A DNA stretch of 64,000 bases from Escherichia coli (GCF_003334815.1 NZ_QOWO01000013.1), one strand, 5' to 3'. Shown: positions 58,194-64,000, numbered from the stretch's first letter. A program made the numbers and translations. Notes: generated by a model not told the origin, from the letters alone.

Positions 58194-59330
58194 ATGGATC
58201 TATTGATTGTTTTAACTTACGTGGCGCTGGCGTGGGCGGTCTTTAAAATCTTCCGCATTCCGGTAAATCAGTGGACGCTGGCGACGGCGGCGCTGGGAGG
58301 CGTGTTTCTGGTGAGTGGTTTGATTTTGTTGATGAACTACAACCACCCTTACACTTTTACCGCGCAAAAGGCAGTGATAGCGATCCCTATCACGCCACAG
58401 GTGACGGGAATTGTTACTGAAGTCACTGACAAGAATAATCAGCTTATTCAAAAGGGCGAGGTGCTTTTTAAGCTCGACCCGGTTCGTTACCAGGCGCGAG
58501 TTGACAGACTTCAGGCTGACCTGATGACGGCGACGCATAATATAAAGACGCTGCGTGCGCAGCTCACTGAAGCGCAGGCCAACACCACCCAGGTTTCAGC
58601 GGAGCGCGACCGTCTGTTTAAAAATTATCAACGTTACTTGAAAGGCAGCCAGGCGGCGGTGAATCCGTTCTCGGAACGTGACATCGACGATGCGCGGCAA
58701 AATTTCCTCGCGCAGGATGCGCTGGTGAAAGGCTCGGTGGCGGAGCAGGCGCAGATCCAGAGCCAGCTCGACAGTATGGTTAACGGCGAGCAATCGCAGA
58801 TTGTGAGCTTAAGAGCGCAACTTACTGAAGCAAAATATAACCTTGAGCAGACTGTCATTCGCGCGCCGAGCAATGGCTACGTTACTCAGGTACTGATCCG
58901 CCCAGGTACATACGCAGCTGCCTTGCCGCTGCGTCCGGTGATGGTCTTCATCCCCGAGCAAAAACGGCAAATTGTCGCCCAATTTCGGCAAAACTCGCTG
59001 TTACGTCTGAAACCCGGCGATGATGCGGAAGTGGTGTTTAACGCGCTACCTGGGCAGGTGTTTCACGGCAAACTGACTAGTATTTTACCTGTCGTGCCAG
59101 GCGGTTCTTATCAGGCGCAGGGGGTATTGCAATCATTAACGGTCGTGCCCGGCACGGACGGTGTGCTGGGAACCATTGAACTGGACCCTAACGATGATAT
59201 CGATGCCTTACCCGACGGCATCTACGCCCAGGTGGCGGTTTACTCCGACCATTTCAGCCATGTTTCGGTGATGCGGAAAGTGCTGCTAAGAATGACCAGC
59301 TGGATGCATTATCTTTATTTGGATCATTGA
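58194..59330 (+). CDS. yibH: HlyD-family membrane fusion protein YibH
   Basis: ORF track 378 aa; N-terminal TM, long coiled coil, beta-rich C-terminus; 2 nt after yibI. Confidence 0.85.
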
Positions 59331-59892
59331 GGGGGAGGGGGGAGATTATGGAACTTTGCTCCTTGTAAGGACTAATTATTTTTGCATATTACTTCATTAG
59401 CTGCGATGATTTTTCTTTAATATTCATTATGTTAATAAGTTCTGGATGAGTGTGCTCTCATTGGATTTTTTATCCGTCTTGTTCTGCCGCAGGATGAGAC
59501 TATACATCGTCGAGATCGCAATGATGATATGAGTTGTTCCTCCTGCGACGGCTCTAATCAAAAAAGAGCAGGAGTGCTTTTCCATCTATTGCGATGATGG
59601 CTTTATTATCTGAAGGATGACAGTCACATTTAAAAAATATTTAATCTATAGATCACAATGTAGGGTCATGGAATATATGTATACAACTATTTTCTTCTTC
59701 ACTTTTAATTATCGTATTCATTATAAAACTAAGTTAAAAAAACTCCTGGAGAGTGAGTTATTAATATATTTTTAAATAAAATTAAGTTATCATTCATCGA
59801 TGCACTTTATAGAATCATCAATGGCCATAATAGTACTATTAACTCTCAATTTTATATTTTTATCATCACTACAAATATTAACTGAATTTATA

Positions 59893-60228
59893 TCAATGAT
59901 TTTTTTTATTCTTATCTTTTATTTTATTTACTGTTTCAATGCAATCAGCGGCAAGTTGGAGTGGATTTAGATTTTTCAGATATGGTCTTATGATCTTTCC
60001 CTTACTTAATAAATAGCATGTATAGGATTCGGAAAGTCCAGCATCTATTTTGTACCTCATTATATTAGATAAGGATGTGAGAAATTCCTTGTTATCATTC
60101 GCAGCCATATATGCCAGTCCGAGTTCAGCCTCTGCGGCCTTACAGGCAAAATAGCTTAGTGAACACGCTTTTCGTCCCTCTTTAGTACTGGCTGATATTA
60201 GTGCCCATAATATTGCTTTGTCTGCCAA
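59893..60228 (-). CDS. hypothetical 111-aa ORF at the distal end of the rhs accessory array (possible orphan immunity gene)
   Basis: ORF track only; track start is a TTG and the first ATG is internal; AT-rich; no recognisable motif. Confidence 0.35.
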   Translation of the reverse strand: MADKAILWALISASTKEGRKACSLSYFACKAAEAELGLAYMAANDNKEFLTSLSNIMRYKIDAGLSESYTCYLLSKGKIIRPYLKNLNPLQLAADCIETVNKIKDKNKKNH

Positions 60229-60316
60229 ATCTAACTCTCTCTGAAATTGTCTTGCAGTAACTGCACTCGCAGAAATAGAGAAAAAAATACAATTGTTAAT
60301 AACCTTGCCATATTTT

Positions 60317-60610
60317 TTAGTCCGTAACTGTTAATGTGCTATCTGGCTCTGAAAATATTAACTCATTTAATTTTTGCATGTCATTAGATAAACCAGTTAT
60401 ACAACCCTCGGAACAGAATCGAGGTCCTAAAGACGGACCAAAAGCGTTTAAACAACTATGTATTGAAAATCCATTGCGATTATAAGTTCCTGTATTAACT
60501 GACGGTACTAATCGTATGCCGTCAGGTTTTCTATTGCTTGCTCCCGGGTCATTAACATTCCAACTCCATAGGCCTTGAGGTATTGGCCATCTATTTATAA
60601 ATGTGTACAA
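60317..60610 (-). pseudogene. probable remnant of an orphan Rhs C-terminal toxin tip
   Basis: ORF track 97 aa starting at TTG; lies directly downstream of the degenerate rhs core-end fragment but in a different frame. Confidence 0.35.
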
Positions 60611-60744
60611 CGGGGATTATTTTTACATTGCATATTATTACCAGAAGCGACTGGAATACTAAGCACATCATAAAAATTATCATCACATGGTATATCTGAA
60701 ACACACGAAAGCATACCTAAAGTTATGCTGTATAAACAGGTGGC

Positions 60745-60925
60745 TAATCCCAAGGGGATCGATTCCAGAAATCGGGTTCAACGGATACTGATAAAAATTC
60801 CACCTACCTTCCAGCCCAATCGGAGCCTGAGTGTTATACCGCCCCTGCTGCGGTTAATGTTACCGATAATAGTTATAGTACAGCCCTGATTCATCATCAT
60901 ACTACTGCTGCGGCAGTCTGATGAA
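60745..60925 (-). pseudogene. degenerate Rhs core C-terminal fragment with in-frame stops
   Basis: Reverse translation gives [54 protein letters not shown], a decayed copy of the rhs core end ([20 protein letters not shown]...[24 protein letters not shown]). Confidence 0.6.
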
Positions 60926-60934
60926 CTATTGCTT

Positions 60935-61396
60935 TTACGGATTCTCCTTATTCTTCCTTCTATCCATTCGCTTTAGCTTTTTGAGCTCTTGAAGTTTGCT
61001 CTTTGCATCAATATTACCGTTATTTACAGCGAATTCCATCCAATAAATAGCTCTATTCAAATTATAATATTCTGATAATGTTGGATTTGTATCTGATAAA
61101 AAGACCCCATAATTAAACTGCGCTGTAACATTCCCCTGAGATGCTGATCTTTCCAAGAATCGCAATTGTTTGTAAATGTTATTTTTAGTAAAGCAGTAAT
61201 ATTGATATAGTCGAAATGATGCCTCTGAATCACCATGTTGTGATTTATACTTCAGTTTCATCAACTTTTCTTCACTTAAATCATAGGTCATTGCTGTAGA
61301 CCCCATCATACTTTCGTTTTGTTTTATTTTCACATCAGCACCATGCAATTGACAAATAAAAGAGAAATAAAAAAATAGTAACAAGCATGCTTTCAT
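60935..61396 (-). CDS. yibG: Sel1-repeat protein YibG with N-terminal signal-peptide-like segment (putative immunity protein for the yibJ toxin tip)
   Basis: ORF track 153 aa; 12 nt downstream of yibJ stop. Confidence 0.82.
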   Translation of the reverse strand: MKACLLLFFYFSFICQLHGADVKIKQNESMMGSTAMTYDLSEEKLMKLKYKSQHGDSEASFRLYQYYCFTKNNIYKQLRFLERSASQGNVTAQFNYGVFLSDTNPTLSEYYNLNRAIYWMEFAVNNGNIDAKSKLQELKKLKRMDRRKNKENP

Positions 61397-61407
61397 ACAT
61401 CTACAAC

Positions 61408-62352
61408 CTATCTTATATCACTGGGTTTTTCTGGCGTACCTTGCATATTAGAAATGGGGTGCCCAGATGGCCCATATGTTATCCAATTACCAAGGTCTTT
61501 TGTTGTTATAGCCATTAGATCCTTATTTGAATTAAGGTTCGTTGGTGCTGTTAGCACTGTATCCATTTTTAACTTACCATTAGTTCCTCGCCCCCACCAC
61601 GTCCATAGCGTGTCAGGTCCTATTACATTTGTATGTAACTCTTTAGCTAATTGGCTAGCAAATGAATTTTGTCCTTTACCTGTATTACAAGAAAATAACC
61701 AAACTGTCATCCCATCTTTATAATTCCCATCAAATTTAATTAGATATGCTAGATCTTTAGCTGTCATGATACTGCGCGTTGCGGATTCAATAGATGTGGG
61801 GGTACCATGCCCCCCGATTGTGAAAACGCCTGGGATATTAATCTCATCAGCTACAGAATGGATAAGATCACTTTCGGGGTATAAATTTATATCAACCAAA
61901 CCTTGCGGATCTACATTTATGACCGGATTCAACGGATACTGATAAAAATTCCATCCCCCCTTCAGTCCAATCGGATCCTGAGTGATATACCGCCCCAGCA
62001 GCGGGTCATAATAGCGGTGGCGGTTGTAATACAGGCCGGACTCCTCATCATACTGCTGACCCGGCAGGCGAATGAGCTGCTGCAGATGATGCGGGTTCTC
62101 ATCACTCAGCAGGTTGCCCCATTCATCATATTCTGCGCACCACGCTGTTGCCCCTTCCGTGCTGATGAGCGCCAGCGGCAGGCCGCGATGGTCGCAGTGG
62201 TACAGGTGGATTTTTCGCGCCGGCGTGTACACCGGGTCCATCTGGTTTTGCATCTGCTCCACCGTCAGGCCGCACGATGCCAGCCAGCGGCGGCTTTCCT
62301 CACTCACCCGGTCAGCCAGGATTTCACTTTCCAGCCGGTCGAGCATCTGCAC
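61408..62352 (-). CDS. yibJ: orphan Rhs C-terminal module YibJ: rhs core 3' fragment fused to an alternative C-terminal tip
   Basis: ORF track 314 aa (GTG 62352 or ATG 62346); first ~150 aa nearly identical to the rhsA core end, diverging after DPQGL. Confidence 0.8.
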
Positions 62353-62388
62353 CGTGCCGGCGGGAATCCCCCACTGTGCATAGGCAAC
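61921..62388 (-). repeat. direct repeat of the rhsA core 3' end (second copy at 63678-64000 and beyond)
   Basis: long near-identical stretches, e.g. TTTTTCGCGCCGGCGTGTACACCGGGTCCATCTGGTT at 62211-62247 and 63964-64000. Confidence 0.85.
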
Positions 62389-62393
62389 TCACG

Positions 62394-63236
62394 CTATGAA
62401 CGCTTCAGCTTATCAATAGCGGAAGTTATAATTTCATTGTCATCAAACTTGTACAACATAGTATCTAAAACAGGAAGTAGCGTTTTATCACCTAATTCAC
62501 CCGCAGCTTCAATGATATCATCATAAACAGTATTTTTTTTTAACTCATCGCATAAAACAGATAAAACCCTTTTATCTTTTCTGTAGGAAAGTCCGATTAT
62601 TGCTTCAATACGGACTTCCTCATTTTTATCCTGAAGCATCTCCACAAAACAATCCCTAATATCACTATTATCATATTTATTGATATTTATTGCAAATGCG
62701 GCCCAGTTTCTGACATCTCCATTTGGATCTTTTAACAGATTAATCAATAGTGGAATTGTTGCTTTATCATTGATAACAGAAATAGCAAATGCTGTAGCAC
62801 GTCTGACATTAGTCGATTTATCAAAAGCAGTAATTTGAGATTGTTCTACTATTTTAGGTGAATAAATTGGGTTTTTCTTGCATCGCTGAGCCGTTGACTC
62901 GATTGCCGTAGCTCGAACGCAAGCGCTCTTATCATTCAATGCCATATTGTTCAAAATATTAAAAACATTATCTTCGCATTTTTTGCAAATTTTTATTTGC
63001 CCGAGTATAAATGCTCCGATATCTCTACGGATATAATTTTTATCAGAGCAGAACTCAATTGCCAATCTAACAGCGTCTTGCCCACCTCTTAACTGTAATA
63101 CTCTGGCAGATGAAATCCTTTTCAAGGAATTGTGATCATCAAGTAAGCGAAATAATTCATCATCATTTAGTTTCTTACATTGATTATATAAACCATACTC
63201 TTTACTTGCCTTTCTTTTCTGGTATGTATTTGACAT
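62394..63236 (-). CDS. yibA: HEAT-repeat protein YibA (RhsA-associated immunity protein)
   Basis: ORF track 62394..63251 (GTG); ATG 63236 preceded by GGAGG gives 280 aa; 20 nt downstream of rhsA stop. Confidence 0.82.
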   Translation of the reverse strand: MSNTYQKRKASKEYGLYNQCKKLNDDELFRLLDDHNSLKRISSARVLQLRGGQDAVRLAIEFCSDKNYIRRDIGAFILGQIKICKKCEDNVFNILNNMALNDKSACVRATAIESTAQRCKKNPIYSPKIVEQSQITAFDKSTNVRRATAFAISVINDKATIPLLINLLKDPNGDVRNWAAFAININKYDNSDIRDCFVEMLQDKNEEVRIEAIIGLSYRKDKRVLSVLCDELKKNTVYDDIIEAAGELGDKTLLPVLDTMLYKFDDNEIITSAIDKLKRS

Positions 63237-63256
63237 TGCAGGAACCTCCACAAGGG

Positions 63257-64000
63257 CTATCTTTTTTTATCGTTTGACTGTCTGGAGTGACGACAATTCC
63301 AGGCTTTCTGTGTGCTTTTTGCATCTTTAGCACTAATATCACCACAATCAATTAGTTCCTGAAGTACGTCACATCTGTCGGGTTTTTTCCCATCACTCCA
63401 GAATCTGTCATTTATTATGTCATTGACACGATCAGTTATCCCTGTGTCTGCAACATTTCCACGAGAAGCTATCATTGTTATATCTAATGCTAGTCCCGGA
63501 TTATTCAATATTAGAGAGTCAAATATTCTTTGTGATGCTGTATCGTTCCACCATTTTGTCAATGCTTTTGCAGCATTATCATCTGCTTGCTGCTGTGCAG
63601 GGCTTTTGGGCCATGGAATTGGCAAGGGGAATGGTCTAGGAAAAACTTCTAACCCCAGAGGATCTGTATTCGTAACTGGATTCAACGGATACTGATAAAA
63701 ATTCCATCCCCCCTTCAGCCCAATCGGATCCTGAGTGATATACCGCCCCTGCAGCGGGTCATAATAGCGGTGGCGGTTGTAATACAGGCCGGACTCCTCA
63801 TCATACTGCTGCCCCGGCAGGCGGATAAGCTGCTGCAGCTGATGCGGGTTCTCTTCATTCAGCAGGTTGCCCCATTCATCGTATTCTGCGCACCATTCTG
63901 TTGTCCCTTCCTTGCTGATAAGGGCCAGCGGCAGGCCGCGATGGTCGCAGTGGTACAGGTGGATTTTTCGCGCCGGCGTGTACACCGGGTCCATCTGGTT
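63257..64000 (-). CDS. rhsA: RhsA, 3' end only (core C-terminus, DPLGL junction and C-terminal tip); gene continues beyond window end
   Basis: Open reverse-strand frame from the window end to TAG at 63257-63259; ...[44 protein letters not shown]... Confidence 0.88.

Follow-up and report, generated by a model that had tools for sequence, protein, structure and literature searches.

The rhsA gene of Escherichia coli encodes a large Rhs protein whose C-terminal tip is followed by the gene yibA, and rhsA/yibA was the first Rhs locus at which both toxicity and rescue were shown. As related by Poole et al. (2011; PMC3150448), Vlazny and Hill (1995; J Bacteriol 177:2209) found that the C-terminus of RhsA keeps stationary-phase cells from recovering and that this effect is neutralised by yibA. 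We analysed the rhsA tip and yibA at one end of a 64,000-nucleotide stretch of E. coli DNA (GCF_003334815.1, NZ_QOWO01000013.1; the whole stretch is referred to as the window). The core extension ext-a1 and dsORF-a1/yibA of K-12 (Vlazny and Hill, 1995) are the same locus, with a toxic C-terminus and a protective downstream open reading frame (ORF), and there is no difference from the locus studied here other than the 5' truncation of rhsA by the window. Zhang et al. (2012; PMC3482391) described the toxin domain Ntox34 as all-alpha, with the signature GNxxD, K, C, C, K, WxCxH, and placed it under 'predicted metal-independent RNase toxins'; Imm-HEAT was given as its immunity protein, RHS proteins as its carriers and the type II or type VI secretion system (T2SS or T6SS) as its route of export. 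In Neisseria cinerea the effector Nte2 (PAAR-Rhs-Ntox34) lowers growth and viability in the E. coli cytoplasm, and the product of the neighbouring gene, Nti2, rescues the cells (PMC8263058). Photorhabdus TcC, Pseudomonas protegens RhsA and P. aeruginosa Tse5 share with E. coli RhsA a YD-repeat shell, a core ending in PxxxxDPxGL and a variable C-terminal toxin, but their toxin domains are unrelated to that of E. coli RhsA.

The window very probably holds the toxin/immunity module of RhsA, a polymorphic toxin of E. coli, acting through the full mechanism proposed below. The original prediction had also taken the RhsA tip and YibA for a toxin and its immunity protein, and this pairing is supported by the work of Vlazny and Hill (as given in PMC3150448), by Zhang et al. 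(2012), by Nte2/Nti2 and by the gene order at 16 of 16 further loci. The locus, the toxin family, the immunity family, the toxicity and the rescue are all in the literature, and the module is thus already known; the conserved order of Ntox34 and a YibA-like gene at those 16 loci is the new supporting evidence presented here. The likeness to the Ntox34/Imm-HEAT pair of Zhang et al. extends to a full-length domain match, the GNxxD and WxCxH motifs, the RHS carrier and the HEAT immunity gene. Nte2/Nti2 resembles RhsA/YibA in having a toxin of the same family on an Rhs carrier, in its cytoplasmic toxicity and in the adjacent rescuing gene.

The stretch is 100% identical to K-12-type E. coli genomes with annotated rhsA and yibA. 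Positions are those of the window, and all features of the RhsA tip and YibA lie on its minus strand. The 5' side of rhsA is cut off, leaving a fragment of 247 amino acids within the window, while the full protein has 1377 amino acids in an identical genome (L001). The NCBIfam models RHS_core (NF041261, E = 1.4e-70) and Rhs_assc_core (TIGR03696, E = 6e-25) both end at the last Leu of DPLGL, which is residue 117 of the 247, and the tip that follows comprises 130 amino acids (nucleotides 63260-63649), which are residues 1248-1377 of full-length RhsA. The GC content switches at the same motif: it is 0.56-0.62 on the core side and 0.33-0.41 throughout the tip and yibA. This is the classical Rhs layout, in which PxxxxDPxGL joins a GC-rich, conserved core to a variable extension rich in AT, and an ORF lies downstream. 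A junction of the DPxGL type is an established autoproteolysis site in other Rhs and TcC proteins, and by analogy RhsA is expected to be cleaved after DPLGL. Much of what the original prediction read from this part of the sequence is exact: the junction and the tip as quoted there agree with the translation, the length that it put at about 130 residues is the number counted, the spacing of 20 nt between the rhsA stop and yibA is correct and the GGAGG ribosome-binding site is present, 8 nt from the ATG.

Outside the window, full-length RhsA (L001) has DUF6531 at residues 46-123, at least ten RHS_repeat matches and one RHS domain according to Pfam, and its N-terminus reads MSGKPAARQGD, in which the letters PAAR occur literally. 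The upstream neighbours of rhsA in the same genome are yibF and selA, not vgrG. Rfam gave no match in 59000-64000, a scan for promoters and terminators gave counts no higher than in shuffled sequence, with no site upstream of yibA, and PADLOC returned only a generic HEAT hit and otherwise no defence-system match. A word-indexed homology search returned near-identical E. coli fragments only.

A profile search of the tip had been proposed together with the statement that the tip holds no assignable motif, and it is this search that refutes the statement: Pfam Ntox34 (PF15606) matches the tip with E = 6.5e-44 and 148 bits over model positions 1-80 of 80. The tip carries GNVAD (GNxxD), PDRC, WxCxH and SR. 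Residue conservation was taken from an alignment of 16 diverse Ntox34 members, in the numbering of a 90-residue construct. Asn25, Thr73, Lys75, Cys79 and Ser82 are invariant across the 16 members, and Gly24, Asp28, Cys53, Leu56, Ala76, Trp77, Arg83 and Ser85 are kept in at least 90% of them; the second Cys of the K-12 Ntox34 protein is not conserved. The Ntox34 cores are basic, with an isoelectric point (pI) of 9.2-9.9 in eight out of ten, and the last 22 residues carry a charge of +4 to +8.

The AlphaFold 2 (AF2) model built from this alignment has three helices (residues 29-46, 52-62 and 67-76) with a predicted local distance difference test score (pLDDT) of >90 and no strands. Confidence is low in the C-terminal tail, and the folded core comprises about 50 residues. 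Fold searches with the model did not find a structural relative, and a PDB sequence search with the tip alone gave no match. When the family profile was compared with the PDB, the only match was a borderline one to the head of ComGC, which is the competence pilus's major subunit (PDB entry 6txt, E = 0.012; with hhalign, a probability of 73%). As no fold search reproduced this match, ComGC was not adopted as a relative of Ntox34.

The linker ahead of the domain is Pro-rich in E. coli, whereas that in Neisseria is hydrophobic and Gly-rich. A linker of the RhsA type (PxP...NDNAAxxLTKWWxDTxSQ) is also found in a 137-residue protein (P0042), where it precedes a different, Cys-rich C-terminal domain. 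The recurrence of the linker in front of an unrelated domain suggests that it is a separate, exchangeable unit.

YibA is the protein of PDB entry 1OYZ over all 280 residues (E = 5e-183) and is related to the designed alphaRep HEAT proteins (PDB, E down to 2e-21). Pfam gives three HEAT_2 matches to it (E of about 1e-6) and a weak match to the PBS-lyase HEAT-like repeat, in agreement with the earlier description of YibA as built of HEAT-like repeats. The NCBIfam entry PRK09687 ('putative lyase') also matches, with 466 bits. The AF2 model that includes YibA shows about 18 helices with a pLDDT of >90.

Ntox34 is a small family: among 1.84 billion representative proteins, searched exhaustively with phmmer, 36 match at E <= 0.001. 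Loci were gathered by a genome scan and by contig look-ups, and those from outside E. coli come from Neisseria lactamica, Streptococcus infantis, S. oralis, S. timonensis, Snodgrassella alvi, Xanthomonas hortorum, an Acidovorax metagenome-assembled genome and several metagenomes. Wherever downstream sequence was available at these non-E. coli loci (16 of 16, from at least five genera), a YibA homologue lies directly downstream of Ntox34 on the same strand (phmmer E from 1e-71 to 1e-3). The toxin core of N. lactamica is 65% identical to that of RhsA. On one metagenomic contig (L018, 2410-4304) Ntox34 is fused not to an Rhs shell but to an eCIS_core (PF13699) N-terminal region, and a HEAT-like ORF again comes next; the toxin/immunity cassette is thus common to different delivery systems.

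Within the species, the whole module of tip and yibA is present in 1757 of 5426 complete E. coli genomes, and in about 1385 more of the same set yibA is accompanied by no more of the toxin gene than its last 32 nt. E. coli 1EC213 (L020) shows how such an arrangement looks: at this same site in the chromosome, a tip of the rhsB type, together with yhhH, the immunity gene of that tip, lies upstream of an orphan yibA. This is C-terminal displacement that leaves the immunity gene behind, and the retention of yibA after the toxin has been displaced is as expected of an immunity gene. A search of plasmids did not find the complete module. The coordinates of the features in the window are collected in Table 1.

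Table 1. Features of the rhsA 3' part and yibA in the window.
Feature	Position	Strand	Details and basis
rhsA 3' part	63257..64000	-	Translation; frame open from the window end at 64000, stop TAG 63259-63257
PxxxxDPxGL motif, at which the conserved Rhs core ends; autoproteolysis predicted to follow the last Leu	63650..63679	-	Sequence, NCBIfam core models, GC drop
Pre-toxin linker, tip residues 1-50, proline-rich then moderately hydrophobic	63500..63649	-	Outside the Pfam Ntox34 match; low pLDDT
Ntox34 toxin domain, tip residues 51-125	63275..63499	-	Pfam PF15606, family alignment, AF2 model
Spacer rhsA-yibA, 20 nt	63237..63256	-	With Shine-Dalgarno sequence GGAGG at 63245-63249, 8 nt before the ATG
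yibA, 280-residue HEAT-repeat immunity protein (Imm-HEAT)	62394..63236	-	ATG 63236-63234, stop 62396-62394

In L004, L005, L007 and L008, from Gram-positive oral streptococci (S. infantis, S. oralis and S. timonensis), an intact YibA-like HEAT gene lies beside remnants of Rhs-Ntox34 that are truncated or frameshifted. L004 has 93.6% DNA identity over 1193 bp to the N. lactamica locus (L003), and the GC content of the streptococcal module is 0.25-0.28, against 0.32-0.37 in its flanks. Barring contamination, it looks as if an orphan immunity cassette had recently passed from one oral commensal to another.

The mechanism that we propose starts with RhsA as the carrier, a large YD-repeat shell protein with DUF6531, RHS repeats and a putative PAAR-like N-terminus. 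The shell would enclose its own C-terminal 130 residues, and the aspartyl protease of the Rhs core would cut after DPLGL and free the tip. The tip consists of a linker of about 50 residues and an Ntox34 domain of about 75 residues, the latter with a predicted three-helix core that ends in a conserved basic tail, KAWxCxHSRxSxD. In strains with a T6SS the tip would be delivered into neighbouring cells. It would act in the cytoplasm, the compartment in which toxicity has been shown for the RhsA tip and for the Neisseria homologue, and its target is most probably nucleic acid, with cleavage of RNA as the leading guess. Immunity is provided by YibA, whose protective effect has been shown. The yibA gene, 20 nt further downstream, has a strong ribosome-binding site of its own that presumably serves its translation, and the HEAT solenoid may bind the toxin stoichiometrically.

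Several observations weigh against this reading, some at the level of the carrier and the pair and others at the level of the toxin. The PAAR family has no Pfam match in residues 1-45 of RhsA, even at E <= 10, and the first domain found is DUF6531. E. coli YibA is itself basic (pI 8.7), unlike many immunity proteins of nucleases. An AF2 model of the toxin fused to YibA through a (G4S)6 linker (ten paired rows) had a predicted template modelling score (pTM) of 0.68 and showed no confident complex; the pLDDT of the toxin in this fusion was not above that of the toxin alone, and the model has no interface read-out. The His of WxCxH is substituted in six of the 16 aligned Ntox34 members, and is thus not an obligatory catalytic residue. 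The published signature overstates both this His and the second Cys of the K-12 protein, as each of them varies in our alignment, and in this respect the family as we see it differs from the description of Zhang et al. In the literature searched, we did not find a biochemical activity demonstrated for any Ntox34 domain. Other predictions in the table from which the RNase label comes have reportedly been revised since, which makes that label weak. The original prediction stated that the biochemical activity of the tip is not evident from the sequence; this remains true, and it is a known gap rather than a discovery.

For the chemistry of the toxin we tentatively favour a cytoplasmic, nucleic-acid-directed Ntox34, and most likely an RNase as predicted, although we would put this at somewhat short of an even chance. 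The basic cores and tails, together with the invariant polar Asn, Asp, Thr, Lys, Ser and Arg residues, suit a nucleic-acid target without proving it.

The alternatives that we considered concern either the role of the pair or the nature of the toxin. The Nte2 strain has an active T6SS, whereas K-12, to our knowledge, lacks one, so RhsA/YibA would act there only inside the cell or as retained immunity. It has some plausibility, but is on balance unlikely, that in such K-12-type strains the pair is a chromosomal module akin to toxin-antitoxin (TA) systems, in which a shortage of YibA, for example in stationary phase, would allow the unsecreted tip to hold back growth or to reduce the survival of stress. 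A Salmonella Rhs element reportedly acts as a type II TA module (title of PMC7043789). The RhsA phenotype, in the form in which PMC3150448 passes it on, is intracellular and dependent on stationary phase, which fits such a role, as does the hypersensitivity of a yibA::Tn5 mutant to killing by nalidixic acid, mitomycin C, H2O2, ultraviolet (UV) light and sodium dodecyl sulfate (PMC2824699); that study, however, did not show that the Tn5 phenotype depends on rhsA. RhsA, however, is built like a toxin meant for delivery (a YD shell of 1377 residues with a PAAR-like start and DUF6531), and Ntox34 is elsewhere tied to Rhs, T6SS and extracellular contractile injection system (eCIS) carriers. Moreover, an orphan yibA without the toxin is found in about a quarter of the E. 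coli genomes, which fits defence against an incoming toxin better than an addiction module. A TA-like role would in any case concern physiology in one strain background, and the identity of the module is unaffected by it.

As for the toxin itself, Ntox34 could be a DNase or another DNA-directed toxin rather than an RNase, which we regard as quite unlikely. The sensitivity of yibA mutants to DNA-damaging agents (PMC2824699), the basic character of the conserved tail and the weak profile similarity to the ComGC head (the 6txt match given above) all point in this direction, but the constellation of metal-binding His, Asp and Glu residues typical of DNases is not conserved in the 16-member alignment, and the secondary sources contradict one another, some giving RNase and one DNase.

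It is less probable again that Ntox34 is not an enzyme at all, the small helical domain instead blocking an essential target stoichiometrically or acting on the membrane. The modelled core, at about 50 residues and three helices, would be very small, the fold searches returned no structural relatives, the two nearly invariant Cys residues suggest a structural staple rather than catalysis, and in many homologues Gly-rich hydrophobic segments precede the domain. Nevertheless, the invariant polar residues Asn, Asp, Thr, Lys, Ser and Arg cluster in two short motifs, much as those of an active site would; the RhsA tip (in the summary of PMC3150448) and Nte2 (PMC8263058) are both toxic when expressed in the cytoplasm; and the domain is polar and basic, not membrane-like. 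Similarly doubtful is the idea that Ntox34 represents a new kind of toxic domain, a minimal three-helix unit with a staple of two Cys residues and a basic tail, perhaps remotely related to the ComGC head, that would bind or modify nucleic acid, or some other target essential to the cell, in a new way and so kill it, and that the HEAT solenoid would neutralise by wrapping the tail.

Finally, that YibA is an enzyme or a general stress protein ('putative lyase' and 'lethality reduction protein' in databases) which adjoins rhsA by accident is extremely improbable: the PRK09687 name, the weak PBS-lyase repeat match and the stress phenotypes of the Tn5 mutant (PMC2824699) speak for it, but we rejected the lyase label because it reflects only a repeat type common to phycobilisome lyases, Ntox34 is followed by a YibA homologue at all loci examined, whatever the phylum or the type of carrier, yibA remains at the rhs locus after displacement of the toxin, and direct rescue is reported (as relayed in PMC3150448).

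Two further Rhs remnants adjoin the module in the window. A second, orphan Rhs module (60935-62352, minus strand) follows directly after yibA and consists of a core-end fragment and a tip of 162 amino acids, which has no Pfam match even at E <= 10 and is less well understood than the RhsA tip; the gene after it, yibG, encodes a Sel1-repeat protein and is presumably the immunity gene of that tip. In the next segment (59893-60932, minus strand), positions 60749-60932 are what is left of a third Rhs core end, which shares 72-76% identity with the other two, with short ORFs next to it and, beyond, a frameshifted immunity gene of the Imm57 family (as seen in the identical annotated genome). The locus is thus an array of decayed tip/immunity cassettes.

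RhsA/YibA is a textbook example of an Rhs polymorphic toxin, with a conserved delivery shell of high GC content, a motif for cleavage and an exchangeable toxin tip, rich in AT, that comes with an immunity gene. Solving the chemistry of Ntox34 would not open a new field, but would explain how effectors in E. coli, Neisseria, Snodgrassella and Xanthomonas work.
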